From sequence record NC_105587.1: 64,000 nt of DNA. The stretch is one strand, 5' to 3'. Of the stretch, positions 644-25,933 are shown in pieces. This DNA comes from Escherichia phage EC100. The position numbers were made by a program, and so were the translations under genes. How positions within the stretch are numbered: position 1 is the stretch's first letter; each line of letters opens with the position of its first letter. The notes beneath the pieces are model-generated. The model searched no databases. It worked only from the letters and a program-made list of their open reading frames with translations, and was not told where the DNA came from.

Positions 644-719
644 TGGTACACCCACTAGGACTTGAACCTAGAACCCTCCGCTTAAGAGGCGGTAGCTCTA
701 ACCATTGAGCTATGGATGT
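644..719 (-). tRNA. tRNA-Lys (anticodon CUU)
   Basis: Minus-strand cloverleaf: 7-bp acceptor stem (ACATCCA/TGGGTGT), D-stem GCTC/GAGC, anticodon loop CTCTTAA, T-arm CTAGG-TTCAAGT-CCTAG, encoded 3' CCA. Confidence 0.7.
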
Positions 720-896
720 ATTAAATTACTTTTTCCAGTTCATCAGCTATGGCTTTGATTTTTTCAAAGTTTACATCACTAATAATGATACCTTCCAGTG
801 ATAGAGATATTCTAGCATTTTTCGTAGCAGATTCTTTTATCTGCTCTATATCTTCTGGAGTAAACTCTCTACGTTCCATAGCTAACCTACCTTATT

Positions 897-973
897 TGGC
901 GCGACCGATGGGATTTGAACCCACATTCCCTCCCGTGACAGGGGAGTACCATTACCAAGCCAGCCCCGGTCGC
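897..973 (-). tRNA. tRNA-Asp (anticodon GUC)
   Basis: Perfect 7-bp acceptor stem GCGACCG/CGGTCGC, anticodon stem CTCCC/GGGAG with loop CTGTCAC, T-loop TTCAAAT, encoded CCA. Confidence 0.75.
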
Positions 974-982
974 ATAATTCAT

Positions 983-1168
983 TTACTCAGCTTTGAGTTT
1001 TTCAATAGCTGCATTAAGTTCTTTAAGAAACTCTTTTCGTACATTAAGACGGTTGAGACTTACTAGTATATCATGTTTAAGTTCTTCGATGTATTTCTTC
1101 TCAACTTCAATATTGTTGATAGTGCTATCACGATGAACTTCTAGCTGCGCAATTACATTCTTGGACAT
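983..1168 (-). CDS. hypothetical small coiled-coil protein (61 aa)
   Basis: ATG start preceded by GAGGAA ribosome-binding site; sits between tRNA genes. Confidence 0.4.
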   Translation of the reverse strand: MSKNVIAQLEVHRDSTINNIEVEKKYIEELKHDILVSLNRLNVRKEFLKELNAAIEKLKAE

Positions 1169-1270
1169 GCTTGTTTCCTCAGTTATTAATGAAAATGGTA
1201 TCTGTGGCTGGATTCGATGTCAGCAATGATAGCTGGTTGGCTACCGGTTTACTTAACTCTACACAGAATT

Positions 1271-1353
1271 TGGCGGGCCGTGTAGGATTCGAACCTACGT
1301 TGTCTTTCGACATGGATTAACAGTCCACCGCCAAACCGCTTGGCTAACGACCC
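1271..1353 (-). tRNA. tRNA with anticodon GUU (Asn-type) but a 13-nt variable arm
   Basis: Acceptor GGGTCGT/ACGGCCC, D-stem GCCA/TGGC, anticodon stem GTGGA/TCCAT, loop CTGTTAA, extra arm GTC-GAAA-GAC, T-arm GTAGG-TTCGAAT-CCTAC, CCA. 83 nt. Confidence 0.5.
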
Positions 1354-1505
1354 TGAATTTGTATTGCTGACTAGGATTTTCACCTAGACGGAGTTAGCAC
1401 CGTAGCGTGTAGCGGCATACCTCTCCAAACCGTGCCTCATCTTTCAATTACGGAGACAGTGTTCCTACGCGTGCCTGAATTGATTTAACAATTCTTTCAG
1501 CAAAT

Positions 1506-1581
1506 TGGACGACCGCATGAGATTTGAACTCACATAAAAAGGATTTGCAATCCTTCGCCTAAGCCATTCAGCCAACGGTCG
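1506..1581 (-). tRNA. tRNA-Cys (anticodon GCA)
   Basis: Acceptor CGACCGT/GCGGTCG, anticodon stem AAGGA/TCCTT with loop TTGCAAA, T-arm GTGAG-TTCAAAT-CTCAT, encoded CCA. Confidence 0.7.
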
Positions 1582-1650
1582 GTTTATCTTGTTCTGTCAT
1601 GTTGCTTCTCCAGTTCAATTTATGTAATTATTATACAGAACTTTTGGAAA

Positions 1651-1923
1651 CTAAGCAACTACATTTTTTAAGAATTTGATGCCTTTCTTTTTCTTCTTAT
1701 ATTTCCACGTTAATGGATTCTGTCGATTATGAACGCTTGAGATCTTTGTCTCGTCAAAGTTCTTCAATACCATGTAATCACAAGATAATTGTTTTAATGG
1801 AATGTGATCACCGTCAAAAGCGTATACATAAGGCTGTTGACTAGCACGATAATGATAGACTTTGTTAATTCTACGTTTCAGCAACTTATCCGCGCAGTAA
1901 ATAAAGAAGTTTTCAGGATGCAT
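1651..1923 (-). CDS. hypothetical protein (about 90 aa)
   Basis: Track ORF 1651..1938; internal ATG at 1923 has a GAGGGAG ribosome-binding site, so the start was moved there. Confidence 0.4.
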   Translation of the reverse strand: MHPENFFIYCADKLLKRRINKVYHYRASQQPYVYAFDGDHIPLKQLSCDYMVLKNFDETKISSVHNRQNPLTWKYKKKKKGIKFLKNVVA

Positions 1924-1940
1924 CAGCAGCTCCCTCAATT

Positions 1941-2015
1941 TGGTGCACCCTGTTCGTATCGAACGAACCTCTCAAGCTCTTCAGGCAAGCGCTAATCCAT
2001 CTCAGCTAAAGGTGC
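1941..2015 (-). tRNA. tRNA-like element, anticodon arm not resolvable (possible pseudo-tRNA)
   Basis: Good acceptor stem (GCACCTT/AGGGTGC), T-arm GTTCG-TTCGATA-CGAAC and 3' CCA, but no clean 5-bp anticodon stem could be folded by hand. Confidence 0.3.
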
Positions 2016-2101
2016 AAATTTTGGCAGGGGTAAAGGTATTCGAAACCTTTTCATGGGTTTTGGAGGCCCATTTGCAACCTATGCGTACCCCAATTATTAA
2101 T

Positions 2102-2176
2102 TGGCACACCCAACGAGGATCGAACTCGTGTTCCCACTGTGAAAGAGTGGTGTCCTAACCGCTAGACGATAGGTGC
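2102..2176 (-). tRNA. tRNA-Glu (anticodon UUC)
   Basis: Acceptor GCACCTA/TGGGTGT (two G-U pairs), anticodon stem CCACT/AGTGG with loop CTTTCAC, T-arm ACGAG-TTCGATC-CTCGT, CCA. Confidence 0.65.
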
Positions 2177-2183
2177 ATTAAAT

Positions 2184-2271
2184 TGGTGGGCGTTAATGGA
2201 GTCGAACCACTCGAGTCGCAATGACCAGGGATTTACAATCCCCTCCGCTACCACTTACGGAATAAACGCCC
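2184..2271 (-). tRNA. tRNA-Tyr (anticodon GUA), long variable arm
   Basis: Acceptor GGGCGTT/AACGCCC, anticodon stem GGGGA/TCCCC with loop TTGTAAA, long extra arm, T-loop TTCGACT, CCA. 88 nt. Confidence 0.7.
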
Positions 2272-2352
2272 ATATTTAGAAGTATTCAAATACTAGTTTA
2301 AACACTTTTAAATATGTTTCCAAATTAGATAACTATTATATCAAGTTTTAAG

Positions 2353-2391
2353 GCACTGAGCAAGTAAGATTTTGAAGAACTTGCTCAGTGC
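2353..2391 (-). terminator. stem-loop with 13-bp perfect stem, downstream of 2400..2675
   Basis: GCACTGAGCAAGT ... ACTTGCTCAGTGC inverted repeat; flanking U-tract weak, so possibly a processing or stability element. Confidence 0.4.
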
Positions 2392-2399
2392 TGTATTAG

Positions 2400-2675
2400 T
2401 TAGTCGAACTTAGGAGTGACAGATAAGGAGAACGGAAGTTCAAAAACTTCTTCACCCTCATTACTAACGGTAACTACACGACCTTTAAGTTCAGACATTG
2501 AAATATCAATATCAGCTTTTGCATCTGGAGACATGCCAGCTTCAACACATTTAGCTTTAACTTCCGGAAGGAGTTCTACATCGTAGAAATAAAGCCATTC
2601 AATCTCACCTTCCCAGCCTTCCCAGGATTTACAGATTGCACTTTCAATACCAGTTGCTATAACACGATTTTGCAT
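2400..2675 (-). CDS. hypothetical protein (91 aa)
   Basis: ATG start with GAAGGAG ribosome-binding site; followed by a 13-bp-stem hairpin. Confidence 0.45.
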   Translation of the reverse strand: MQNRVIATGIESAICKSWEGWEGEIEWLYFYDVELLPEVKAKCVEAGMSPDAKADIDISMSELKGRVVTVSNEGEEVFELPFSLSVTPKFD

Positions 2676-2765
2676 TCGTTAACTCCTTCATCAATTTATA
2701 TAACTATTATACCAGAAATTTAAAGCAAAAGGCAAGTACATTTTTAAAAATTCTGTTCGGAGGAG

Positions 2766-2972
2766 CTAAACTCCAGATTCTTCTGCCAAGTCTAGACTAA
2801 TAAGAGTTATAGCCATAATTGCTGCACCGTGTTCTTTTTCTCCGGTGTTTTTAGCAGAGTCTATAATAGTCTTAATCTGTTCGTAATAGCCTTTTACTTC
2901 TTGTTCAATACCTGCCTCGGCTATCATGCCTTTAGTCATGATTCGTTGCATAGTAATTTCACGGTTAGCCAT
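2766..2972 (-). CDS. hypothetical protein (68 aa)
   Basis: ATG-initiated ORF; its start overlaps the stop of a possible unlisted upstream small ORF (about 2965..3132). Confidence 0.4.
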   Translation of the reverse strand: MANREITMQRIMTKGMIAEAGIEQEVKGYYEQIKTIIDSAKNTGEKEHGAAIMAITLISLDLAEESGV

Positions 2973-3161
2973 GTTGTTTCTCCAGCTTCATTTTTAATAG
3001 TTTACAAATGAAATCAACGTCTTCATCTGTACCTAGATCTCTATCTTCAAGGGTTGCCTTGAAATTTTTCGTTAGTTCCATAAGAATAACTTCCCTAGAA
3101 CGACGTGTTGGCGGAGGTGGATGTCTATACATCTTAATTCCTTAACTTGGTAGGGGTTATA

Positions 3162-3845
3162 TCATCTATTTTTCTTAATACTTTTAGGATCTTTCCCTGT
3201 TAGGGACTTATACCTTTTCCTTAATCCAGTATCAGACAATCCTAGTTCTTTGGAGGCACGAATCCAGGAATATTTAGATACCCAGTACTCTATTTGCTCC
3301 ACAGTAATATCTGGATTTATAGTTATCTCTTTAGGAGTACATGATTTACAGTGTGTTGCTCTTGAGCTAATTTCGCAGTGACAAATAGCACACGTATTTA
3401 CAGTCCTTTCTGTATACCTGCCAATATTTTTGCCTGCATGAGTAGGTGTTAGTGCATGGCAATTTGGGCATAGGAAGGCTAAGTTATCCCATTCATTATT
3501 ATAGTGATTTCCATCCTTGTGTTCAAGTTCTAAAGGAATTGGTTTATCTAACCAACTTTCTAAGCCACAACTCTCACATTTATGTGGTTTTAGCCCCTCG
3601 TTAAGAATTTTATTCTTTAGTTTATAGGAAGAAATAGGGCTGCCGTTATATAAATACTCTGTTGCAGACTTATATTTATTATCATACTGCCTATTCGCAG
3701 GAATAACTACTATTCCTAGTTTTCCTAAATATGCTTCCAAAGTGTTCGAGGAGCAGGATAGCATTCTTGCTATCTCTGCTTTAGATTTTCCCTGAGCTAT
3801 CCACTGAGCTATTTCTTCCTTTCTATCTAGTATATCAGTTCTCAT
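3162..3845 (-). CDS. HNH homing endonuclease with N-terminal helix-turn-helix domain
   Basis: HNH motif region HKCESCG...ELEHKDGNHYNNEWDNLAFLCPNCH plus further Cys/His clusters; weak ribosome-binding site; located inside the tRNA island. Confidence 0.7.
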   Translation of the reverse strand: MRTDILDRKEEIAQWIAQGKSKAEIARMLSCSSNTLEAYLGKLGIVVIPANRQYDNKYKSATEYLYNGSPISSYKLKNKILNEGLKPHKCESCGLESWLDKPIPLELEHKDGNHYNNEWDNLAFLCPNCHALTPTHAGKNIGRYTERTVNTCAICHCEISSRATHCKSCTPKEITINPDITVEQIEYWVSKYSWIRASKELGLSDTGLRKRYKSLTGKDPKSIKKNR

Positions 3846-3868
3846 AGTTTATGACTTTATAATTAAGT

Positions 3869-3946
3869 TGGTGGCTCCCCGAGGATTCGAACCTACGTAC
3901 CTTCCGGTTATGAGCCGGGTGCTCATACCATATGAGCTTGAGAACC
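3869..3946 (-). tRNA. tRNA with anticodon CAU (Met or Ile2-type)
   Basis: Acceptor GGTTCTC/GGGAGCC, D-stem GCTC/GAGC, anticodon loop CTCATAA on a CCGG stem, T-loop TTCGAAT, CCA. T-stem pairs only partially. Confidence 0.5.
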
Positions 3947-3952
3947 AAAATC

Positions 3953-4041
3953 TGGCGGAAGAAGTGGGAATCGAACCCACAAGGCTATATTTCAAACCGA
4001 CAGATTAGCAATCTGCTGCAATACCGTTATGCTATTCTTCC
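3953..4041 (-). tRNA. tRNA-Ser (anticodon GCU), long variable arm
   Basis: Perfect acceptor GGAAGAA/TTCTTCC, anticodon stem GCAGA/TCTGT with loop TTGCTAA, long extra arm, T-arm GTGGG-TTCGATT-CCCAC, CCA. Confidence 0.7.
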
Positions 4042-4062
4042 GAATTTATAAGATATATTATA

Positions 4063-4581
4063 TTAGAAATTTAGCTTCATAGCAAGAAAATTTTTCAAGT
4101 TTTCGGTAGACATCTCATCCACATCTACAGGAGAAACAAATCCATTTAATTTTCTAGCAAATTTTTCACCCGCAGGATCGTTGTCCCCGACAGCTACCAA
4201 TTTAAAAGGTAATAATTTCAGTTGCTTTAATAAGGCTTTTCCTGGAGAAGAACCCAACATTGCCAGGGCTGGATAACCAGCGTTATGTAACGCAACTGCC
4301 TTAAATACAGATTCAGCAATCAATACTACTTTTTCATCTCCATTGAGAGTTTCTAGTCCCCATACACACTGTGTAGTAGAATAGGTAAAATATTTAGCTT
4401 CAAAGGGGCACTTACCATGCCCTTTTGGAGCAGAAGGATTATAAGTCTGATAGCCTCTCAACATCCCAGAGAAGTCATACAACGGGACTGTTAGCCATCC
4501 TTCTGGACTTAACCAGCAATGATATTTATCTGTATCAAATCCCCTAGATAAGAGGTGCTGTGTTAGCTCATCAACATTCAT
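4063..4581 (-). CDS. Toprim-domain protein (primase-like catalytic core without zinc ribbon)
   Basis: Toprim signature VVLIAESVFKA (Glu) ... LVAVGDNDPAG (DxD); start moved to the ATG at 4581, which has a GAGAGAGGAA ribosome-binding site. Confidence 0.5.
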   Translation of the reverse strand: MNVDELTQHLLSRGFDTDKYHCWLSPEGWLTVPLYDFSGMLRGYQTYNPSAPKGHGKCPFEAKYFTYSTTQCVWGLETLNGDEKVVLIAESVFKAVALHNAGYPALAMLGSSPGKALLKQLKLLPFKLVAVGDNDPAGEKFARKLNGFVSPVDVDEMSTENLKNFLAMKLNF

Positions 4582-4756
4582 ATTTGGTTCCTCTCTCAAA
4601 TTTATAGATATATTATACAGAGAATTTAGCATTCAAGCAATCAAATTTTTTAACTTTTTAGAGGAAAATCATAGGGCACTTAAGGGTAGCAGATAAGTGG
4701 TGAGGACCAAAATTTGTGACCCCACTAAAAATCCGGGGGCAATTTTTAAAGACCCC

Positions 4757-4785
4757 TTGACATTTTCGCTGGGGTAGTGTAAAGT
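4757..4785 (+). promoter_or_regulatory. sigma70-type promoter (TTGACA, 17 bp, TAAAGT) for the plus-strand low-complexity module
   Basis: TTGACATTTTCGC -35 core shared with the element at 32904; 60 nt upstream of the GGAGG ribosome-binding site. Confidence 0.45.
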
Positions 4786-4848
4786 ATATGTTATGGATGA
4801 GTGATCAAAGAGACACACATTTTCTGTATACTAGGAGGTGTCAAAAAA

Positions 4849-5840
4849 TGACAGAAGAAGTAGCTAAGAGTCCTGAGACCGTCGCTAGCGTTGCGGCAGA
4901 ACTGCACCGTCACGAGGAATCAGATAAGAAAAAGTGGGAGAAGGTCAGAGCCTACGAAGAAAAACATCGTGAACACGATGATGAAGACGATGAAGATGAC
5001 GATGATGAACATTGTCATAAATATGGAAAACATAAAATGCAAGAACCAGTAAACGTATTTACTAATGGCTTCCCTGGCCTACTAGGTGGTTACCCAGCAA
5101 ACGTAGGTGCTTTCGGTGGTGAAGGTATGGGACTATTCGGAGCTATCCTAATCGGCGCTCTATTAACAGGCGGATTCGGTGGTTTCGGTGGATTCGGTGG
5201 ACGTGGTGTTGTTGGTGAAGGTACCGCAGTTGATGCAGTACTTCAGAACCAAGATACCGCTAGTATTCTAGCAGCTATCAACACTACTCGTACAGAAGCT
5301 AACCAGGGTACCGGAGCTGTTTTAAGCGCAGTTAACAATGGTTTTAGCCAGACATCCCAAAACCAGAGCCGTGATACTCAGTCTGTATTAACTACGATCT
5401 ATGGTACAGGTGCTAATCTGTCTAATCAGATCTGCCAGGAAACCCGCAACGTTATTCAGGGTCAGTTCGATCTTTCTCGCCAGATTGATCAATCTTTCGC
5501 AGCTAACCAGATAGCTCGTGCACAAGATAAATTTGATTCTGCACAGATAGCTTTCCAGCAGACTTTACAAACTAATAACCAGTTTGCCGCTGTTCAGGCT
5601 CAGATGTGTGCTAACCAGAACTCTCTGGAACGTCAGATCGCTGAATGTTGCTGTGAACTTCAGACTGCGATCGCTGGTGTAACTACTGCGCGTATCCAGG
5701 ATGAGTTAGATGCATGTCGCCTACGTGAAGCAATCGCTGCGGGTAGCGGTGCTAACGGTCAGGTAATTAATCAAATCGCTTTAAGTCTTGGTGCTATCAC
5801 TCAGACTCTGGCTGGTCTGCAGGCTAAACTGCCGGCTTAA
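4849..5840 (+). CDS. low-complexity protein: acidic N-terminus, Gly-zipper hydrophobic segment, Q/N/T-rich Cys-containing C-terminus
   Basis: GGAGG ribosome-binding site 9 nt upstream of the ATG at 4849; acidic run DDEDDEDDDDE, GLFGAILIGALLTGGFGGFGGFGG, roughly 200 aa Q/N/A/T-rich tail with CCC. Confidence 0.55.
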
Positions 5841-5861
5841 TATTAAGGGGAGGAGCCCATT

Positions 5862-6275
5862 ATGAGTAAATATGGTTTTGTAAATAACGGACTTAATCAA
5901 AGTATGGGCTCCCAGCAGCCCATTCCGGGTCTGGATAACCCCTACTTACAACAGTTGCAACAGCGTTTAGCAGAAGCGCAACAGATGCAGCAACAACTCC
6001 AGCAAAACCCTGGAAGTGTGAGTCCTATGCAAATGATGCAGCAAATGAGCGGGCAGTCGCAAATGCCTCAACAAATGCAGCAACAGATGCCGCAGCAAGT
6101 TCAGCAACAAACCCAACAACCGCAGGTTTCTGCGGAAGGACAGGCAGTACTAGCCCTTTTCGAAGACTTCGCAAAGACAGAGGATGGGAAACAGCTTGTA
6201 TCACTTATGGGTAAGTTTAATAGCTTCTGCCAAAGCCAAATTGCAAAAGCTCAAAATAGCGGTAATAACTCCTAA
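5862..6275 (+). CDS. glutamine-rich protein (137 aa)
   Basis: GGAGG ribosome-binding site; QQLQQRLAEAQQMQQQLQQ...QQMQQQMPQQVQQQTQQPQ; codon usage of highly expressed genes. Confidence 0.55.
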   Translation: MSKYGFVNNGLNQSMGSQQPIPGLDNPYLQQLQQRLAEAQQMQQQLQQNPGSVSPMQMMQQMSGQSQMPQQMQQQMPQQVQQQTQQPQVSAEGQAVLALFEDFAKTEDGKQLVSLMGKFNSFCQSQIAKAQNSGNNS

Positions 6276-6284
6276 GGAGGGATT

Positions 6285-6479
6285 ATGTGTTGCAGAAAAT
6301 CTGTTTCGTGCTGCCCAATGCCTGTAGCACGTTGTTGCTCTCCAGCAATGTTTACGCAAATACCGGCGTTCAATCCGTTTGCCTTTAAGCCTACTCTTAT
6401 CCTGCCCCCTAGAGTAGATTTTCAGTCAAGATTGGCCTCCCGTATGGGTGGTTGCTGTAATAAGAGTATATGGTTCTGA
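6285..6479 (+). CDS. cysteine-rich small protein with four vicinal CC pairs (64 aa)
   Basis: AGGAGG ribosome-binding site; MCCRKSVSCCPMPVARCCSP...GGCCNK; followed by an intrinsic terminator. Confidence 0.45.
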   Translation: MCCRKSVSCCPMPVARCCSPAMFTQIPAFNPFAFKPTLILPPRVDFQSRLASRMGGCCNKSIWF

Positions 6480-6495
6480 AGAACCAAACAATAAA

Positions 6496-6529
6496 GCCCC
6501 TAGTCGAAAGACTTAGGGGCTTTTCTTTT
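6496..6529 (+). terminator. intrinsic terminator ending the plus-strand low-complexity module
   Basis: GCCCCTAGTC-GAAA-GACTTAGGGGC hairpin followed by TTTTCTTTT. Confidence 0.75.
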
Positions 6530-6540
6530 ATCTTAAATAC

Positions 6541-6574
6541 AGAAAAGCCCTGCGCTCTCCAGGAAACGCAGGGC
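6541..6574 (-). terminator. intrinsic terminator after the SPFH gene
   Basis: GCCCTGCG ... CGCAGGGC hairpin with a U-tract on the minus strand; convergent with the 6496 terminator. Confidence 0.65.
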
Positions 6575-6599
6575 TTACTTCAGATGTTACATGCGGGTA

Positions 6600-7547
6600 T
6601 TATTTATTACGCATATCCATAATCATTTGGCCATCATAGCCAGTGCCAACCACAGTCTGCGGTACACCACCCTGATACTTCTGAGCACGAATCATTTCAA
6701 CTTCCAGTTGCTTCCAGCGAATCATCTCAGGAGTAATGGTACGTTGCAGTGCGGCGTTAGCTTCAGCTTCTTTCTTAGCTGCGTACAGTTTAGCATCTGC
6801 ATCACGTTCATTAGCAATAGCTTGGTTGTTGCGAGCTTCACGATCTGCTTCTGCTTGTTTAACTTTTTGCTGTGCTTCCTGTTCAACACGAGCTAATTCA
6901 GCTTTAGCAGCATTAACCTGTTCTTCACGAACTTTGGTATTCTGTACCTGTTCCATGATTACCGGTGGCAAAGTAATATCCTGAAGGAACACCTGCTTAA
7001 CTGTGTAACCATATGGGCGTGCATACTCTTCAACTTCCTGTTGAATTGCAGTTTGCAATTGAGCCTGAATTTTAGCATCAAACAAATCTTGTGCTTTAGG
7101 CACAGACTTACCAAACTCACGAATAGTAGACAATAATTTTTCAGTTACATATTTGTCTAACGCTTGATCCTGAGTACCTGCATTAATACGGTTAATCGGT
7201 GCCTTAGAACCATCAAATTGCAACATAACAGTCAAGTCAACAGTGGATTTAAACTTATCCTGACTAGGAACCTGAAGTTTATCTAATTTTACAGCAATAT
7301 CTTTTGTACTAAAAGTATCGAAAGATGCAAACGGGTTTACAAGATGGAAACCAGGTAATACTGGGTTAGGATCTACTTTACCCAGAAATGTTTGGGTTTT
7401 AACCGTACCATCAGAAACAATAGTATATGAATTAAAAGCTAGGATTAAACCTGCTAAACCAACTACAGCACCAATACCCCAACGTTTAATAGTACGAATT
7501 ACTTTCTGCTCAGAAGTCAGTTCTTTCATATTTTTAGTATTAAACAT
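6600..7547 (-). CDS. SPFH/band-7 (HflC/prohibitin-like) membrane protein
   Basis: N-terminal transmembrane helix (WGIGAVVGLAGLILAF), SPFH-like core, C-terminal Ala/Glu/Gln-rich coiled coil; ATG with AGGA ribosome-binding site. Confidence 0.65.
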   Translation of the reverse strand: MFNTKNMKELTSEQKVIRTIKRWGIGAVVGLAGLILAFNSYTIVSDGTVKTQTFLGKVDPNPVLPGFHLVNPFASFDTFSTKDIAVKLDKLQVPSQDKFKSTVDLTVMLQFDGSKAPINRINAGTQDQALDKYVTEKLLSTIREFGKSVPKAQDLFDAKIQAQLQTAIQQEVEEYARPYGYTVKQVFLQDITLPPVIMEQVQNTKVREEQVNAAKAELARVEQEAQQKVKQAEADREARNNQAIANERDADAKLYAAKKEAEANAALQRTITPEMIRWKQLEVEMIRAQKYQGGVPQTVVGTGYDGQMIMDMRNK

Positions 7548-7581
7548 ATATTTCCTTTGTTTTAGTTACAGTTAATAAAGT

Positions 7582-7656
7582 TGGCCGAGGTGACAGGATT
7601 CGAACCTGCATAAAGGAATTTAGAAGACTCCTGCCTCTCCCTTAGACTACACCCCG
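7582..7656 (-). tRNA. tRNA-Arg (anticodon UCU)
   Basis: Acceptor CGGGGTG/CACCTCG, anticodon stem GGAGT/ATTCC with loop CTTCTAA, T-arm GCAGG-TTCGAAT-CCTGT, CCA. Confidence 0.7.
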
Positions 7657-8157
7657 TTTAAGTATTTTTAAGAACTCTCGTAAAAACTCTTAAAAATACA
7701 GACGATACCGGGAGAGTCATAAGTCTCACTCATTAAGTATTTCAAGACAAAATACAGTAACGTCTATTATTTTCCAGTTTAAGTCAAGGTGACTTAGTGG
7801 TTATGTCCTGCGGTATATTGAGGACTCGGTTAGGTTAGGGTCATGACTCCCCACCTTTTTGCTGCTACTCAACAGGAGTTATCGCGAATTACCTGTGCTA
7901 TTGTGCACCATTAGTGGCATCTCTCATGCCAGCATTTCCCACTTTATGTATAGCTTGAAAAACTACTCCGATATGGAGGAAAAACTTCACTATCTAGAAT
8001 ACCTTCTAAAGTTCTTCTTTAGCCTGGACATAGTTAAATCGTAATAAAACTATTCAGCAGACTGGTTGGTTAGTCTGGAACCAACTACCGCGTGGTTTAG
8101 GCAGTGCGCAACTAACCTCGGAAGCTTTTACGTTAAAAGCATCAGTTATCCAGTTCT

Positions 8158-8229
8158 TACCGACCGTAGGATTCGAACCTACATCTTCCACCAGTTACGG
8201 CTTGATAATACCAATTATACTAGGACGGC
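8158..8229 (-). tRNA. tRNA-like element (degenerate, possible pseudo-tRNA)
   Basis: T-arm GTAGG-TTCGAAT-CCTAC identical to the one in the 1271-1353 tRNA, acceptor stem with one mismatch, no clean anticodon stem, no CCA. Confidence 0.25.
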
Positions 8230-8305
8230 AGTGTTACTACATAAGTGATTTCCACACCCCACTATTTATAAATTAGATAGAAATTACTCTCTAATTTATG
8301 AATAT

Positions 8306-8334
8306 ATTATATAGAATTTATAAGCATTTAGCAA
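8306..8334 (-). promoter_or_regulatory. T5 early-class promoter (TTGCTA, 17 bp, TATAAT)
   Basis: Minus-strand TTGCTA-17-TATAAT with the conserved CATAAATT downstream box. Confidence 0.6.
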
Positions 8335-8342
8335 ATGAATTT

Positions 8343-8777
8343 TTAGAAAAATTCGCTAGCAATCAAAGCAGTTGTTTTACCATCATAACGCCCTGGAAAC
8401 TCTGCCTTAATGGTTTTCATTAAGAGAGCTTTGGTAATACCCGGGTTTAATTTAACCAGTTCTGCAAAATACTCACGAATCTGAACTTCAGTTAACTGCT
8501 CTAGAGCATATTCATACTCTAGACCTGCTAACAAGTCGAGATATTCAGCATCTGGAGTATATTCGATATTTGCTTTTGCAGCAGAAGTCATTGTATTCTC
8601 AATTGCTTTGAACTGTGATTTAATCCAGTTAGTAAATTCTAGTCTAGATACGCAATCTTTATCAATTCGTTGTAGGTCGCCTAAAATCGTGCTAAGGTGC
8701 TTGACTGACGCAGTATCACCGTGTTTGCGAGCTTTTTCAATTAATTCTCGCAGTACACGAATCATATTCGTACCCAT
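8343..8777 (-). CDS. hypothetical protein (144 aa)
   Basis: ATG start overlapping the stop of an upstream small ORF in a TAATG arrangement. Confidence 0.5.
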   Translation of the reverse strand: MGTNMIRVLRELIEKARKHGDTASVKHLSTILGDLQRIDKDCVSRLEFTNWIKSQFKAIENTMTSAAKANIEYTPDAEYLDLLAGLEYEYALEQLTEVQIREYFAELVKLNPGITKALLMKTIKAEFPGRYDGKTTALIASEFF

Positions 8778-8947
8778 TATTTCATCCCCAATGCTTGGTT
8801 AAAAGATTGTTCTGTCATAACTGCTGAGACTTTGGCGAAATCAAACTTTTTAGGGTTCGTAGTGATTTCAGCAATGTTAGAAGTTTTAACAGTTTTCGTA
8901 GTACGAATACCGCGAGTGTTAACACCAATAATTACAACTGATTTCAT
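8777..8947 (-). CDS. hypothetical small protein (about 56 aa, below the track size cutoff)
   Basis: ATG at 8947 with GAGGAAG ribosome-binding site; stop overlaps the downstream start (TAATG). Confidence 0.3.
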   Translation of the reverse strand: MKSVVIIGVNTRGIRTTKTVKTSNIAEITTNPKKFDFAKVSAVMTEQSFNQALGMK

Positions 8948-9015
8948 ATTTCGCTTCCTCTCATTAATTTATGAAAGTATTATACAGAAATTTAAGTATT
9001 TAAGCAAGTAAATTT

Positions 9016-9465
9016 TTAAGTTTTAGTGACAACAGGTTTATAGAATGTATGTCCCTTAATCTTAGTTGTTTTCTTAAATTTCTTTGTCCAGTAAGGTTTA
9101 TCTTTACCACTATGGAAGTATAGTGCTCCATGTGTAGGATCTTGTGGTAAATCAACGTAGTATATCACTCTAGCTAAATTCTTAGCGGTTTGCCAAGCCT
9201 CATCAGTTTTATCAACTTTTGGTCTCTTAGATACCCAAGAGAACTGGTTAGACTGATATACTACTTTACAGTAGGAATCTGGGAATTTACCGGAGTTTAC
9301 ACGGTTTTTAGTAACATGTGCAATCGCCGTCATTCCCTTTATGCCCTCACCACGACTTTCGAAATAGATATTTTTAGCAATGCAATCTATTTCTTTTGCA
9401 TCGTGCGACGCCTGACTACTAAAGCTGAAGGTAAGGGCAGCTACTAAAAGCAAAGCTGCCTTCAT
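9016..9465 (-). CDS. secreted cell wall hydrolase, SleB/Hydrolase_2-like
   Basis: Signal peptide MKAALLLVAALTFSFSSQA; conserved block IYFESRGEGIKGMTAIAHVTKNRV...VVYQSNQFSW; start moved to ATG 9465 with AGGAG ribosome-binding site. Confidence 0.6.
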   Translation of the reverse strand: MKAALLLVAALTFSFSSQASHDAKEIDCIAKNIYFESRGEGIKGMTAIAHVTKNRVNSGKFPDSYCKVVYQSNQFSWVSKRPKVDKTDEAWQTAKNLARVIYYVDLPQDPTHGALYFHSGKDKPYWTKKFKKTTKIKGHTFYKPVVTKT

Positions 9466-9470
9466 TCTTT

Positions 9471-9788
9471 TTACTCCTGCCAATCATATTCAACACGATT
9501 GGGATTTTCTTTATACCCTAAGTCAAGCAAATCATTACGCATATTTTGCTTAGCTACTGGGTTCGAGGTTACTAGTACCACTTTCTTTGGTCTCTGCCCA
9601 AATTCTAAGAGTAAACGAAGAATTTGATAACCTTCCATACCATCTACAGCCAAGTCATTATCCATATAAACGAAGTGGCCTGTGGTATCAGTTTTATTCA
9701 GAAACTCTACAGCGGCTTCTGGGGTTCGAATGATAATGTCCATTCCGTGAAGATTACGCACATCATCAATCAAAATATGAAAAGTCAT
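9471..9788 (-). CDS. stand-alone CheY-like receiver (REC) domain protein
   Basis: Aligns by eye to CheY: ILIDD (acidic pair), YMDNDL..GMEGYQIL (phospho-acceptor Asp), VVLVTS (Thr), GYKENP (Lys); 105 aa. Confidence 0.5.
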   Translation of the reverse strand: MTFHILIDDVRNLHGMDIIIRTPEAAVEFLNKTDTTGHFVYMDNDLAVDGMEGYQILRLLLEFGQRPKKVVLVTSNPVAKQNMRNDLLDLGYKENPNRVEYDWQE

Positions 9789-10230
9789 AATAGCCTCGTT
9801 TCATCAATTTAAAAATATATTATACATATAATTTAGTAGATTAGCAAATACATTTTTAAATTGTGAAACTAGTAAACCGATAAACAGCCTAGAGGCGCCA
9901 CAGGCCATATCTTATGAGCCATGTACCTTTGATCTAGGGTTTGAATCATCAACGAATACTTTGCATCTTTTAGCTTTAGAAGTTTAGAAGTTTGAGTTCT
10001 TTAAACTTTTCAGCTTTCATACTTAAATGTTGATCTTTGAAGTTGTGTCGGTAATATCAACGACGCTTTGTTCTTACGTGTCAGCTTAAAAGGCTGGTGT
10101 AATAAACATAATCTCCAATAGATTATACTTTATAGTATGGTCAGCGGTCTTATTTAACCTCGTATTTCAACCGCTGTTGCGAGGTAAGATGCTTGGGCTT
10201 TCGTCTACCGATTTACTAGCTTTTAAATTA

Positions 10231-10869
10231 TTACTCTACTTCAATAAAGGTAGAGGCGTTAGACTCGGACAGAACAAAGTCAACATTTGTTGCAAAGTCC
10301 TGGTATTCCTCGTCATGCTGCTTAATCAGCTTCTCCAGTTCCAGCGGATCAATCAAGAATGGAGTATTCTTGAGTTCCAGCAGGTTGAGCTGCATTTTAA
10401 CTTCATCTTCGGAAGTTTTCTTATCGCGGGTAGCCATGCTATCCTGCAAACGCTCGTATTTAGCATCAAACTGTGCTTTCTGCGTATTAAACTTAACCGT
10501 AGCGGCATGGAACTGCTTACGCATGTTAGCCAGCAGTTGAGCTTTAAGTTCCATACAACGCTTAGCTTCAATTGCTTCCGCAACAGTCATCTTACGAGAA
10601 CCGATCTCAACGATTGTTTCTGCATTGCTCTTAATCAGAGCAGCTTTGATACGATCACGCTGGGACATCATATCCAGCAGAGACTGGAAATCTGTCTTAA
10701 TACGCTCAGATAAATCAGCTACTTCGATTGCAGCACCAACTACAACCTGGTTTTTATCCTTACCTTCACCAACAGCGATCAGAAGCTGCTGTTCAGTAGC
10801 TTTACGGATTTTAGCTTCCAGAGATTTGATAGTTGCTAGAGCGCGAGTTTTAGAAATACGAGTAGTCAT
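10231..10869 (-). CDS. hypothetical coiled-coil protein, likely abundant (212 aa)
   Basis: AAGGAAG ribosome-binding site; E. coli-optimal codon usage; no catalytic motif. Confidence 0.55.
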   Translation of the reverse strand: MTTRISKTRALATIKSLEAKIRKATEQQLLIAVGEGKDKNQVVVGAAIEVADLSERIKTDFQSLLDMMSQRDRIKAALIKSNAETIVEIGSRKMTVAEAIEAKRCMELKAQLLANMRKQFHAATVKFNTQKAQFDAKYERLQDSMATRDKKTSEDEVKMQLNLLELKNTPFLIDPLELEKLIKQHDEEYQDFATNVDFVLSESNASTFIEVE

Positions 10870-10922
10870 TATTTGCTTCCTTATATGAAGTTTGAGATTT
10901 GAATTTGTTTAAATTTGGTCTA

Positions 10923-11105
10923 TTACAGGCCAATTGCCAGTAAGGTACGCAGAACAGTATCGTTACTGTTATTAATTTTAGGATTAGCACGATTTAGCAG
11001 ATCAAAGATTTTCTGGATACCTGATTGACGTTCAGCCATACGACGGATACCCAGATTACGAGTAGCTTTCTTACCATTTTTACGAACATTTTTAGATACT
11101 GGCAT
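10923..11105 (-). CDS. small basic protein (60 aa)
   Basis: ATG-initiated, Lys/Arg-rich. Confidence 0.4.
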   Translation of the reverse strand: MPVSKNVRKNGKKATRNLGIRRMAERQSGIQKIFDLLNRANPKINNSNDTVLRTLLAIGL

Positions 11106-11175: not shown

Positions 11176-11877
11176 TCAAATTTTCATTTTTTCGATCATA
11201 GCTGCAACACAATAGCTCTCAACTAAGGCATCAAATGCTGGGTCGTGCTTAACCGGATAGATCCCATAACGAATGGTGTCCATCTTCTCCATTTTAGCTT
11301 TTGCCCAGCTAATACCTTCAGCCTCTAGATCTTTGTAACTATAACCAGCTTGCATCCAGAGATTACGGAGAGATCGAACATTGCCCAAATTCCAGAATTT
11401 CCACGGAACTACCTCTTCATTGGTTCCAGCATGGAACGTGTTTGCAGAGTAGATAGTCATATCAAACTCTGGGCCATTGCCATAATACAAAGCATTTTCG
11501 CCTAGAGCCAACTCCATAATATTTTGAGCCATAGAGAAGGCAGCATAGTTTGAGCCGAGTTTATTAGTGCAATGATGTTTACCATTTTGGAAGGCAATCA
11601 GTTTTGGATTACGTCCCTTCATAGCTTCCATAATGTGGATAGCAGACGGGCTATTTTTAGCTTGATCCATCCAGAATGCTAGAGTAGATGCTGTAACTTT
11701 GGCACCAGAATTAAGCTGATCTTGTACATCCAAAGTAACAAATATTAGATCAGGGTCTTTATCAATTCCTTGCATAGCCACAAAAGCGAAAGAAGGCATT
11801 GCGATATGAGTAGTACCACAATCTCCTGGAGTTCCCAGAGATTCAATATCTAGCATACCAAATGGTTTTACTTTCAT
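11176..11877 (-). CDS. DEDDh-type 3'-5' exonuclease (DnaQ-like fold)
   Basis: Exo I motif MLDIESLG, Exo III motif YPVKHDPAFDA; AAAGGA ribosome-binding site. Confidence 0.6.
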   Translation of the reverse strand: MKVKPFGMLDIESLGTPGDCGTTHIAMPSFAFVAMQGIDKDPDLIFVTLDVQDQLNSGAKVTASTLAFWMDQAKNSPSAIHIMEAMKGRNPKLIAFQNGKHHCTNKLGSNYAAFSMAQNIMELALGENALYYGNGPEFDMTIYSANTFHAGTNEEVVPWKFWNLGNVRSLRNLWMQAGYSYKDLEAEGISWAKAKMEKMDTIRYGIYPVKHDPAFDALVESYCVAAMIEKMKI

Positions 11878-23438: not shown

Positions 23439-23601
23439 TCCAGAAAACATGCTTATTGAGCAGTGGAACTTTGGTTATAATGCTGGTGTAGCTACTTGTA
23501 TTGCTAGATTGGATATGCTTATTAAACAAGAAAAGGTACGCCCGGAGGAAGCAATTTTACTCCGAAATATTATCGAAGGATTTAAGCAAGGAATCGTATA
23601 G
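23407..23601 (+). CDS. hypothetical protein (64 aa)
   Basis: GGAGAA ribosome-binding site; overlaps the preceding ORF. Confidence 0.4.
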   Translation: MDFLNQNLKSNPENMLIEQWNFGYNAGVATCIARLDMLIKQEKVRPEEAILLRNIIEGFKQGIV

Positions 23602-24437
23602 TGCGTAGATTAATTATTATTAGCGGTGCGGGTTTGAGTGTTGAAAGTGGTGTACGAGCTTTTCGTACTGATACTGCTAGTGGTAAAGCATTGTGGGATG
23701 ATTATGACTTAGAAGAGGTATGTAATATTCATGCCTTTCGTGGTAATTTTTATCATAAAACTCATATGTTTTACAACAAGCGTCGTGAAGAGCTAAAAAC
23801 TGTTGAACCCAATCTTGCACACTTGCGTATTGGTGAATGGTATAAGAAATATCCGGGTCAAGTAGTAAACTTGACTACCAACGTTGATGACCTTATTGAG
23901 CGTGCTGGCGTTCCACATAGTGACATTCTGCACATTCATGGGTATTTAAAAGAGGTTGTTGTAGCTGATAGCTACAATAGTAGCAATAAACGAATTATTG
24001 ATATTGGGTATAGCTCTATTGACCCAGATGATTATAAATGGGTTAAACCTAATGTAATCTTCTTCGGGGAACATGCTCCAGCATATGCAGAAATGTACAA
24101 TGTTTTTGATGGTATTACCAGTCAAGATATGATCATTGTGGTTGGTTGCTCTAATCAAGTAATTAACTTCTACTGGGAATTATTCCCTGTTCTTAATCTG
24201 ACTTCTGCAAAACTTATGGTAGTTAACTACTATGATAGTGCTCTAGCGGTGGAACCAGGCTATCAAGGTATGACTCGTAGTGAGATGTACCAATTGGAAG
24301 AACGCGGTATCCCTTACTGGAGTAAAGGTGCGGTAGATGCTTTCAGTGACCCTGGTTTTATTGCTCGTGTAGAAGCCCATTTAGAGGGTAGACCTTATGT
24401 GCCGGAGAGAATGGGGAACAAATATGTCCATAGTTAA
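23601..24437 (+). CDS. Sir2-family (sirtuin/CobB-like) NAD-dependent enzyme, lacking the zinc-binding Cys cluster
   Basis: GAGLSVESGVRAFR (NAD-binding), TTNVDDL, catalytic HIHG, NVIFFGE; no CxxC pairs between HG and FGE; GTG start overlapping the upstream stop. Confidence 0.75.
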   Translation: MRRLIIISGAGLSVESGVRAFRTDTASGKALWDDYDLEEVCNIHAFRGNFYHKTHMFYNKRREELKTVEPNLAHLRIGEWYKKYPGQVVNLTTNVDDLIERAGVPHSDILHIHGYLKEVVVADSYNSSNKRIIDIGYSSIDPDDYKWVKPNVIFFGEHAPAYAEMYNVFDGITSQDMIIVVGCSNQVINFYWELFPVLNLTSAKLMVVNYYDSALAVEPGYQGMTRSEMYQLEERGIPYWSKGAVDAFSDPGFIARVEAHLEGRPYVPERMGNKYVHS

Positions 24438-24606
24438 ATCTGTGTATACACATCCCGATGATATATTTGTATGGGCGGATGGTAGTTGGTGTTATCGATG
24501 TGAGCTATGGGAAATGGACTATAAATCCGATGACTATGGTGTCATATATGTTGATACGGCTGAGTATGATACGTTCTTAGAAAGGAACAAAAATGGAAAT
24601 AAGTAA
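24424..24606 (+). CDS. hypothetical small protein
   Basis: Track ORF 24397..24606; ATG at 24424 chosen; overlaps the Sir2 3' end. Confidence 0.3.
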   Translation: MSIVKSVYTHPDDIFVWADGSWCYRCELWEMDYKSDDYGVIYVDTAEYDTFLERNKNGNK

Positions 24607-25099
24607 TACTCCAATTATTTTTCTAGACATTGATGGGGTGCTTAATTCGAGCATCTCCCACCATCATGCACCTGATGATGAAAAGATTTTCTTTGGAAGT
24701 GACTGGGTTTTTAAACCACTTCTCAAGGCTTTTCAGGACTTTATTCGTCCTTCTCCAATAATGATTGTTGGGGTATCTTCATGGTTCTCTGTCAAGAATG
24801 AGATGGAGAACGTTCAGATTATGGCCGGATTAGATCTTATCGATCGTTTTCTTGGTACAACGGATTTTACTGGTGGTGGGCTATCTAGAGGTAATTCTGT
24901 TCTTCGCTTCGTTGAAAAGCATAAGCTCAAACATTGGTGTGTGCTGGATGACGCTGGTGCTATGATGTATCAGTATCCAACGGTTATAGTCAACGGTAGA
25001 ACTGGAATAAATCTTCAAGATTTAAGAGCTGTTAGCTATATGTTAGAATTTAGTCCAGATCTTGAAATGTGTAAAGCCCTACAACAATTTAAGGTGTAA
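24593..25099 (+). CDS. HAD-superfamily phosphatase-like protein (capless)
   Basis: HAD motif I FLDIDGVLN, motif II VGVSSW, Lys region KHKLKH, motif IV VLDDAG; 168 aa. Confidence 0.55.
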   Translation: MEISNTPIIFLDIDGVLNSSISHHHAPDDEKIFFGSDWVFKPLLKAFQDFIRPSPIMIVGVSSWFSVKNEMENVQIMAGLDLIDRFLGTTDFTGGGLSRGNSVLRFVEKHKLKHWCVLDDAGAMMYQYPTVIVNGRTGINLQDLRAVSYMLEFSPDLEMCKALQQFKV

Positions 25100-25101
25100 A
25101 T

Positions 25102-25530
25102 ATGTTCAATAATGTATTCTCTAAAGAAGCTAACCCAATATTGGTTAATTTTTGGCGTACTCTTCCAGACAACCTGTACAATGAGGCTATTAATGCTCTG
25201 AAAATATGGTGTGAGAATAATGAAATCTCCTTTGCTTTTAAAGGTGAGATTGAAGAAGCTCCCTGTATTGGTTTAATTGTGCAGGTAGAGGATGGCTTTG
25301 AAGAGATTGTCGGCTGGAAAGAGTTAGATGAAATGGGCTTGGTTTTTGCGTTAAACTATAAGCTGTTTATGCCTAATAAGCACCGTATTGTTGTTAACTA
25401 TAAAACCAGTGAATCTCCGGGCTTTCAAGTTAATGAACATTACGGTTGGTCTTACTCACCGGAAGAAGTAAATGATGGTATACAAAAACTTCGTCGTTTT
25501 GGTTATCAAATTCCGGGTTTAACCGCCTAA
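25102..25530 (+). CDS. hypothetical protein, paralog A of a tandem pair
   Basis: Shares SFAF..PCIG, W.EL..MGL..ALN..LF.P and W.Y.P...L.R.G...PGL blocks with the next ORF. Confidence 0.5.
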   Translation: MFNNVFSKEANPILVNFWRTLPDNLYNEAINALKIWCENNEISFAFKGEIEEAPCIGLIVQVEDGFEEIVGWKELDEMGLVFALNYKLFMPNKHRIVVNYKTSESPGFQVNEHYGWSYSPEEVNDGIQKLRRFGYQIPGLTA

Positions 25531-25540
25531 AGGGGGCACA

Positions 25541-25933
25541 ATGGAACAAGTATATTGGCGTCAGATTGATCCTAGTTTGGTGAAGCGTGCGGAGAAGCTG
25601 CTACAACGTTGGTTGGGGGTAAGACAAGCCTCCTTCACTTTTCCGGAGCAGCAAATAGACGATCCCTGTGTTGGTGTTTTCCTATCAGGCTACGCTAGGG
25701 AATGGGAATTGGATTGGAATGAATTGTCTGCTATGGGTTTAATTGTTGCACTAAATTTCTCTTTGTTCCATCCACGTGGTTTGGCCATATGTCGTGTGCC
25801 TGATGACGGTTGTTCGCCCCATCTTTTACAGGTGGAAGATGATATTTGGGAGTACACTCCAGATATTCTCAAAGAAGCCAAAGAACAATTAAACCGTGTT
25901 GGGATCTATGTTCCGGGGCTAAATGATAAATGA
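25541..25933 (+). CDS. hypothetical protein, paralog B of a tandem pair
   Basis: Collinear similarity to 25102..25530; AAGGGGG ribosome-binding site. Confidence 0.5.
   Translation: MEQVYWRQIDPSLVKRAEKLLQRWLGVRQASFTFPEQQIDDPCVGVFLSGYAREWELDWNELSAMGLIVALNFSLFHPRGLAICRVPDDGCSPHLLQVEDDIWEYTPDILKEAKEQLNRVGIYVPGLNDK

Follow-up and report, generated by a model that had tools for sequence, protein, structure and literature searches.

The two adjacent genes found on the minus strand at positions 9016–9788 of the window (the whole 64,000-nucleotide stretch of Escherichia phage EC100 DNA that was analysed) code for a stand-alone protein of the cREC family and for a SleB-like cell-wall hydrolase with a predicted signal peptide. 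The explanation which we favour, and which as a whole seems to us reasonably probable if far from certain, is that the cREC protein is a phosphoesterase, that the hydrolase is a separate and presumably exported enzyme with an accessory role, and that the two genes are packed in an ordinary way. The first-pass annotation of this DNA had proposed an orphan CheY-like receiver, tapping host phosphorelays or serving as a phosphate sink and coupled to a periplasmic hydrolase. What it had observed turned out to be largely correct: the open reading frames of 105 and then 149 aa both exist on the minus strand and are real genes. Its interpretation in terms of a phosphorelay and a functional link is unsupported, and so is the idea of a phage that hijacks host two-component signalling in connection with cell-wall hydrolysis.

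Comparison of the 3-kb region 8000–11000 with phage genomes showed 100% identity to Escherichia phage EC122 and 93.6% to T5; 447 phage records, chiefly Salmonella and Escherichia T5-like phages, matched it. The two open reading frames are homologues of T5.084 and T5.083, and the elements of the locus are as follows:

9471–9788, minus strand: gene of the cREC_REC protein, 105 aa, ATG start, T5.084 homologue; a stand-alone divergent receiver-fold domain

9016–9465, minus strand: gene of the SleB-like cell-wall hydrolase, 149 aa, T5.083 homologue (Pfam PF07486; phrog_938 in PHROGs; SleB of PDB 4F55/4FET)

9409–9465, minus strand: Sec-type signal peptide predicted for the hydrolase, residues 1–19, MKAALLLVAALTFSFSSQA before the putative cleavage point and S after it (from hydropathy and an A-x-A-like site)

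9474–9478, minus strand: AGGAG, Shine-Dalgarno sequence of the hydrolase gene, read from the sequence; it coincides with the five coding bases that precede the cREC stop codon

9819–9847, minus strand: sigma-70-type promoter-like site TTGCTA-17-TATAAT directly 5' of the cREC gene (consensus scan, 10/12 matches)

8953–9027 (approximate), minus strand: next early promoter (T5 "P-D/E 33"), placed by homology mapping from the T5 annotation

The candidate promoter in front of the cREC gene occupies the same position as an early promoter annotated in the T5 records, and in both of these records early promoters flank the T5.084/T5.083 pair. The promoter predicted at approximately 8953–9027 starts the following unit (homologues of T5.082–T5.081) and thereby bounds the cREC and hydrolase genes as a unit of two. 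No terminator-like sites were found in the region 8000–10400. This arrangement is best explained by one early transcription unit, in which both tightly packed genes are co-transcribed from the early promoter. The neighbours of the cREC gene in the window are the Hydrolase_2 gene and a DUF7616 gene, and an Rv2179c-like exonuclease is encoded two genes off.

The 105-aa product scored 56.8 bits (E = 3.8e-15) against the Pfam profile cREC_REC (PF20274; cut-off 27), with residues 4–87 of the protein aligned to positions 2–86 of the 88 in the model, whereas the Response_reg profile (PF00072) gave 12.5 bits (E = 0.17) at a cut-off of 30.2. In PHROGs the protein falls into phrog_1479, which has no assigned function there, and searches of NCBIfam and PADLOC with it returned no match. 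The name cREC stands for "Cyclic-phosphate processing Receiver domain"; the family was defined by Iyer, Anantharaman, Krishnan, Burroughs and Aravind in 2021 (PMC7824862) and revisited in a later paper, according to which up to 18% of jumbo phages carry it (PMC9503650). Some GenBank records (Elw_00107, SIA3lw) already designate the gene as a [quoted passage not shown]. The 105-aa gene is thus a member of an already described family and is in this sense already known. A search of the PDB with the single sequence gave chance matches only (designed beta-trefoils), with CheY chains at E values of 0.3–1. The family profile also retrieved TAL effectors from the PDB (E~1e-9). These hits were discarded as artefactual: they add up from numerous weak matches to the repeats, "VVAIASNxGGKQALE" being aligned with "VvlVtsNpvgrknme", and no single one of these is significant.

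Conservation of the cREC reading frame at the protein level in 492 phage records indicates a real gene, and a profile search through 1.84 billion cluster representatives (clusters at 50% identity) registered 431 relatives at E≤0.001. Among the representatives listed beyond the T5 group 140 of 148 are 80–139 aa long, so that cREC normally takes the form of a free-standing domain of roughly 100 aa; the earlier remark that the protein consists of a single domain with no output domain is borne out. Over 142 representatives the residues D8, D9, R11, D17, R21, D43, D45, G47, G53, P67, T/S74, N76 and P77 are near-invariant, and D8, D9, D43 and D45, all present in the query, are conserved in 99–100%. 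The query keeps every near-invariant residue except G47, which is replaced by A, and its key residues are D8, D9, R11, D17, R21, D43, N44, D45, T74 and N76.

The T5-type proteins thus share with the cREC_REC family a score above the cut-off, the stand-alone format of about 100 aa, phage encoding, the absence of a nearby histidine kinase and the conserved motifs DD, D-[HN]-D-L-G and [TS]-x-N-P. They deviate from the family consensus by A47 in place of the near-invariant G, by N44 in place of the commoner H and by the lack of a C-terminal K/R that is present in 79% of family representatives. Unlike the published cREC associations, they are not situated beside genes of RNA ligases, sirtuins, Nudix proteins or kinases.

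An AlphaFold model of the cREC protein, built with a 129-sequence alignment, was confident, with a pLDDT of 92.5 and a pTM of 0.84. Its strands comprise residues 4–7, 18–20, 39–42, 69–72 and 100–102, with a short bridge at 93–94, and its helices residues 23–32, 53–62 and 77–90. No helix is modelled between strands 1 and 2 (alpha1), and the C-terminus is devoid of a helix as well (alpha5). The predicted structure is a receiver-like Rossmannoid fold, which does not amount to the full (beta-alpha)5 architecture with alpha1 and alpha5, and T5.084 may therefore be described as a minimised receiver in which three helices accompany five or six strands. Alignment to E. coli CheY by hhalign placed D43 opposite D57, T74 opposite T87 and N95–P96 opposite K109–P110; its statistical confidence is low, yet it is consistent with the fold match. 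The first-pass annotation had seen the whole set of CheY residues in place. This was right for the acidic pair, the phospho-acceptor Asp and the Thr, but the Lys is absent, K109 being aligned with N95, and the Response_reg quintet (DD, D, T/S, K) is accordingly incomplete. No conserved Lys occurs past residue 92 at any position across the 142 cREC representatives; the alternative position, occupied by the C-terminal K/R in 79% of them, is Q104 in the query.

In receivers alpha1 and the beta5-alpha5 region form the surfaces for docking of kinases and Hpt domains, and alpha4-beta5-alpha5 makes the output face. All of these surfaces appear reduced or absent in the cREC model. The D+2 and T+2 positions are known to control or tune dephosphorylation in CheY-type receivers. 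In cREC they are taken by invariant polar residues, D45 and N76, and two invariant arginines (R11 and R21) reside in the loop that replaces alpha1. Compared with CheY and PF00072 as a whole, cREC scores below the Pfam cut-off and lacks alpha1 and alpha5, the conserved Lys and a kinase partner; it has instead additional invariant residues R11, D17, R21, D45 and N76. Such a pocket, in our reading, looks more like an enzyme site for an anionic substrate, with turnover, than like a stable switch.

A suggestive analogy is offered by the HAD phosphatases, in which a DxD motif supplies an Asp nucleophile and, at Asp+2, a general acid/base. In cREC a D-x-D (D43-N-D45, with invariant Asp+2) is likewise found at the C-terminal end of a central strand of a Rossmann-like sheet. 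The topology and the position of the motif differ, since in cREC it lies at the end of strand 3, not strand 1; a cap domain is absent and no relationship was detected between the sequences. The D-x-D of cREC would suit phospho-Asp catalysis with turnover, the analogy being functional only.

According to the proposed mechanism the kept acidic pocket (D8, D9, D43 and T74), ringed by the family residues R11, D17, R21, D45 and N76, would make cREC a cytoplasmic enzyme rather than a signalling switch, presumably a phosphoesterase with Asp-based chemistry acting on a small phosphorylated or cyclic-phosphate substrate. Receiver phosphochemistry is Mg-dependent. The cREC literature, however, calls the site "metal-independent", a discrepancy that makes the proposed mechanism tentative. 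Candidate substrates are ADP-ribose cyclic phosphate and 2',3'-cyclic phosphates at the ends of RNA or on nucleotides, which cREC was predicted to resolve by the authors of the family, who also report its linkage to RNA ligases, sirtuins, Nudix proteins and kinases (PMC7824862; PMC9503650). The family itself is described as "experimentally uncharacterized" (PMC9503650), and our literature search for the cREC family and for T5.084/T5.083 found no experimental paper on cREC.

The genomic context bearing on this proposal is partly favourable. SIR2 (E = 9e-25; 23601–24437) and HAD_SAK_2 (E = 3e-20; 24593–25099) proteins are encoded at 23601–25099, 14 kb from the cREC gene and on the opposite strand, and these genes match the sirtuin-HAD module described for the close relative phage SP15 (PMC9503650). 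The window further contains nine tRNA genes at 644–7656, and in T5-like phages the tRNA-rich region next to the locus is a site of anti-defence genes (bioRxiv 10.1101/2023.03.15.532788). Together, the SIR2/HAD_SAK_2 module, the tRNA genes and the tRNA-rich anti-defence region make a role of cREC in processing RNA ends or nucleotides plausible, and cREC may cooperate with the distant module in this tRNA-rich genome. Within the window no RNA-repair or NAD-related genes adjoin the cREC gene, and a scan of its vicinity and of the flanks of the SIR2/HAD_SAK genes, these being the places inspected, revealed no RNA ligase. Diverse loci were retrieved from IMG/VR with a 15-sequence subset of the alignment, and in one of them (L040) the genes that come after cREC encode an AAA_33 kinase and, next to it, T4 RNA ligase 1, which reproduces one of the published linkages. 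The other diverse loci are heterogeneous, with HD_4, adenylosuccinate synthetase, thymidylate synthase and many unannotated genes.

A more specific version of the phosphoesterase proposal can be formulated, which we consider possible though less likely than not. T5.084 would be an active Asp-nucleophile phosphoesterase with a HAD-like D43-x-D45 and, together with the unlinked SIR2 and HAD_SAK_2, would clear 2',3'-cyclic phosphates or ADP-ribose cyclic phosphate arising from tRNA cuts made by defence nucleases of the host, or else would destroy a cyclic-nucleotide immune signal. If true, it would represent a counter-defence enzyme complementing the tRNA island of the phage, and T5 would become the first tractable model of cREC. 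The family was described computationally in 2021–2022 and the gene occurs in the classic model phage T5; since T5 and its relatives from the BASEL collection are easy to manipulate, T5.084 is a convenient entry point to the family in any case.

A small protein with invariant Asp residues could also be a ligand binder and not an enzyme. As a non-catalytic "sponge" cREC would sequester a nucleotide-derived immune signal or some other small ligand, in the manner of other small anti-defence proteins of phages. Its size of about 100 aa, its stand-alone nature and its wide occurrence in phages fit this possibility, as do the conserved charged pocket with two arginines and the proximity of the tRNA-rich region, where anti-defence genes are located in T5-like phages (bioRxiv 10.1101/2023.03.15.532788). 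However, the residues that are conserved constitute a phosphoryl-transfer site (DD, D-x-D, T/S-x-N), the published operon links, as well as the L040 locus, point to enzymes that process RNA ends and ADP-ribose (PMC9503650), and neither PADLOC nor any other source provided an anti-defence annotation. We regard a purely binding role as rather improbable.

Still less can be said for an orphan CheY-like receiver, which would receive its phosphate from histidine kinases of the host or from acetyl phosphate and would either serve as a phosphate sink or alter the host's two-component signalling. The protein does have a receiver fold with a conserved acidic pair, central Asp and Thr, and autophosphorylation from small donors is compatible with the sequence. 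The family is nevertheless reported never to be linked with histidine kinases (PMC7824862; PMC9503650), and inspection of neighbouring genes in the window, in T5 annotations and at 12 diverse loci, a limited sample, revealed no histidine-kinase gene. The score of Response_reg below its cut-off, this lack of a kinase link, the model devoid of the alpha1 and alpha5 docking and output surfaces and the missing conserved Lys make phosphorelay tapping or a phosphate sink very unlikely, and the invariant polar D+2 and T+2 residues would fit turnover better than a stable switch.

The assignment of the second gene made in the first-pass annotation, a signal-peptide protein of the SleB/Hydrolase_2 type, was confirmed. 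The 149-aa product matched Hydrolase_2 (PF07486) with 89.7 bits (E = 2.2e-25; cut-off 27) over all model positions (1–100 of 100), its domain corresponding to residues 39–142 (nt 9040–9351). Comparison with Bacillus cereus SleB (4F55) gave E = 2.6e-8 and set FESRGE (residues 35–40) opposite GESRGE, E36 of the ESRGE motif being the candidate catalytic residue. With its full-length match to the catalytic domain and the aligned ESRGE the phage protein resembles SleB/CwlJ. The TIGR02869 (SleB) profile, in contrast, yielded 50.3 bits at a cut-off of 236.5 and covered the C-terminal catalytic part only (model positions 79–201); from a score so far below the cut-off we conclude that the hydrolase is not a true SleB equivalog. 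It differs from B. cereus SleB by the absence of the N-terminal peptidoglycan-binding domain, by the predicted Sec signal peptide and by the Gram-negative host.

Export is predicted from the N-terminus, which consists of MK, a hydrophobic core (top 11-residue Kyte-Doolittle hydropathy 2.61) and SQA/S with an A-x-A-like site. This layout is kept, with different sequences, in four divergent orthologues, those of Ace, KKP_3711, phiKp_27 and Slocum. Homologues of the hydrolase at about 40% identity were also found by tblastn in Vequintavirinae, for which SleB-like proteins with a signal peptide have been described, e.g. Pectobacterium phage CB7_83 and Cronobacter phage CR3_087, CB7_83 being reportedly toxic on expression in E. 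coli (PMC7344957). The Vequintavirinae proteins share both the domain and the signal peptide with the T5-like hydrolase. In those phages, however, the SleB-like protein is a candidate main lysin with a holin-like gene adjacent to it, whereas T5-like phages have a separate holin-endolysin cassette.

The first-pass annotation had raised the question whether the hydrolase is the lysis enzyme, and this is probably not so. Its gene was not found in a lysis cassette beside a holin and spanins: in the close relative IrisVonRoten, whose SleB-like protein is 99.3% identical, the holin, endolysin and spanins are encoded about 19–23 kb from the SleB-like gene (some 22 kb for the cassette as a whole), a place outside the window, and lysozyme, holin and SleB are listed as three separate genes in a T5-like phage (PMC3326045). 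Given these separate holin-endolysin-spanin genes, the SleB-like protein most likely has an accessory part, as judged from its sequence features and gene position: it would be a separate murein hydrolase of the Hydrolase_2 type, produced early and exported by the Sec pathway to the periplasm, where it would assist the holin-endolysin-spanin cassette and not replace it.

At the junction of the two genes the coding strand reads CAG GAG TAA AAAGA ATG. The stop codon had been placed inside the AGGAG, which proved to be inaccurate: AGGAG makes up the last five coding bases, TAA (9471–9473) comes directly after it, and the ATG of the hydrolase (9463–9465) begins 8 nt past AGGAG. A TTG at 9483, with which the hydrolase gene would overlap the cREC gene, was considered as another start codon and dropped; the ATG at 9465 is preferred because of the AGGAG 8 nt upstream and because T5 annotations use this start.

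The order of genes around the junction varies among relatives. In Ace (Epseptimavirus) an HNH homing endonuclease is inserted exactly between the cREC and hydrolase genes, reusing the CAGGAGTAA end, and in KKP_3711 the two are separated by a crAss001_48-like gene. In My1 a promoter and a DUF7022 gene come next after cREC, and the hydrolase lies about 3 kb away; in phi-pp2 (KVP40-like) cREC stands beside a tRNA cluster, with no hydrolase in the five neighbours tested. The phages phiKp_27 and Slocum have the hydrolase and no cREC within 2.5 kb of it. No Hydrolase_2 was found near 16 diverse IMG/VR cREC loci (phmmer E≤1, flanks of up to 5 kb on each side, as far as the contigs reached). Elsewhere in the genome of a close relative, over 38 kb of annotated sequence, about 20 other gene junctions overlap or fall within 10 nt. 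Insertion of genes, separate occurrence and the commonness of tight junctions argue for a lineage-specific gene order with a shared SD/stop junction that would be ordinary compact packing rather than functional coupling.

That cREC and the hydrolase form a functional pair, for instance with cREC controlling synthesis, export or activity of the hydrolase via translational coupling, can in view of these comparative data be considered largely refuted and is hardly credible to us: adjacency with the shared junction is kept across Tequintavirus (the 3-kb region is matched over at least 80% of its length by 233 records), but the predicted compartments differ (cytoplasm for cREC, periplasm for the hydrolase), either gene occurs without the other next to it, other genes may come between them, tight junctions are the norm in a T5-like genome, and Hydrolase_2 homologues are present in 1277 phage records versus 492 for cREC.

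The most unusual feature near the locus lies just 5' of cREC (9867–10220, minus strand): a structured RNA, conserved and about 354 nt long, for which Rfam gave no match. The predicted folding of the whole 442-nt gap on the 5' side of the cREC promoter is much better than that of shuffled controls (z = -5.75). Homologues of the RNA occur in Epseptimavirus, KKP_3711 and Slocum, as well as in unrelated Seunavirus-type phages of about 146–148 kb; since Slocum contains the RNA without cREC, it is not tied to the cREC/hydrolase pair. In phage 4MG a tRNA gene lies within about 10 nt of the end of the element, and in two further sequences (L050 and L075) it runs straight into a tRNA-like 5' sequence; in phages of the 4MG type the RNA would be expected to be processed by RNase P. 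In an alignment of eight RNA sequences the 40 predicted pairs are 99.1% paired. Changes on both sides were registered in 20 of the pairs, compared with 11.7 ± 2.0 in shuffles (0/500 shuffles reached this value) and 1–7 in slid controls. The 20-bp closing helix contains 13 covarying pairs, and the invariant G-U pairs of the RNA fit the gene-sense strand only.

Between the T5.085-like gene and the promoter of the cREC gene, which encodes a stand-alone receiver-like protein, the intergenic DNA contains a candidate conserved structured RNA, detected by its MFE z-score and by covariation:

9867-10220, minus strand: candidate conserved structured RNA, ~354 nt

Its folding gave an MFE z-score of −5.75, and covariation backs a closing helix of 20 bp together with at least four further helices, the structure covering the central A-rich ~250 nt only in part. 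Over the 40 predicted pairs, 99.1% of the cells were paired, and both-side changes were registered in 20 of these pairs versus 11.7 ± 2.0 in shuffles. G-U pairs are compatible with the minus strand only. No Rfam family was found for positions 9867-10220. The same RNA occurs in T5-like phages and in the ~146-kb Seunavirus-type phages (4MG), and it is present in Slocum, a relative that has the downstream SleB-like hydrolase and lacks cREC. In 4MG a tRNA gene lies within ~10 nt of its end, and at the loci L050 and L075 a tRNA-like sequence is directly continuous with it.

A tRNA match was also registered in the window itself:

8158-8229, minus strand: tRNA match (Rfam, 35.5 bits at a cut-off of 29)

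ARAGORN called no tRNA at these positions. The match falls within a stretch annotated in T5 as stable “RNAX”, where one T5 record marks a pseudo-tRNA. Proximity of cREC to a tRNA gene cluster is common to T5-like and KVP40-like phages: in the KVP40-like Vibrio phage phi-pp2 the cluster is located ~2 kb from the cREC gene (1-1031 and 2998-3357 of locus L028). Since accessory genes sit in both regions, this proximity could be a coincidence.

Phage Ace (Epseptimavirus) carries an insertion beside cREC:

2823-3347 of the Ace locus L025: HNH homing endonuclease gene, exactly between cREC and the hydrolase

The inserted gene takes over the SD located within the 3′ end of cREC. In one database protein (P0033, 273 aa) an endonuclease-like N-terminal region is fused to cREC, and in phage Kenya-K44 “HNH endonuclease” is the annotation given to the cREC match.

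Some of the labels given to three neighbouring genes look doubtful:

8343-8777, minus strand: T5.081 homologue, 144 aa, PHROG-derived labels “tRNA amidotransferase” and “recombination-related exonuclease”
10231-10869, minus strand: early-region T5.085 homologue, 212 aa, PHROG-derived label “tail fiber protein”
11176-11877, minus strand: T5.087 homologue, Rv2179c-like 3′-5′ exoribonuclease domain (Pfam, E = 4e-8), PHROGs “exonuclease”

Depending on the record, the T5.087 homologue is called “metallopeptidase” or “exonuclease”, and the former looks wrong. For the other two, the PHROG-derived labels disagree among records, found no support in Pfam and are probably annotation carry-over.

A possible partner of cREC, unlinked to it, is the pair formed by the first two of the following genes, which corresponds to the sirtuin-HAD module described in phage SP15 (PMC9503650):

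23601-24437, plus strand: SIR2-family protein (E = 9e-25)
24593-25099, plus strand: HAD_SAK_2 phosphatase (“Swiss Army Knife RNA repair”, E = 3e-20)
25102-25933: two DUF7415 paralogues in tandem
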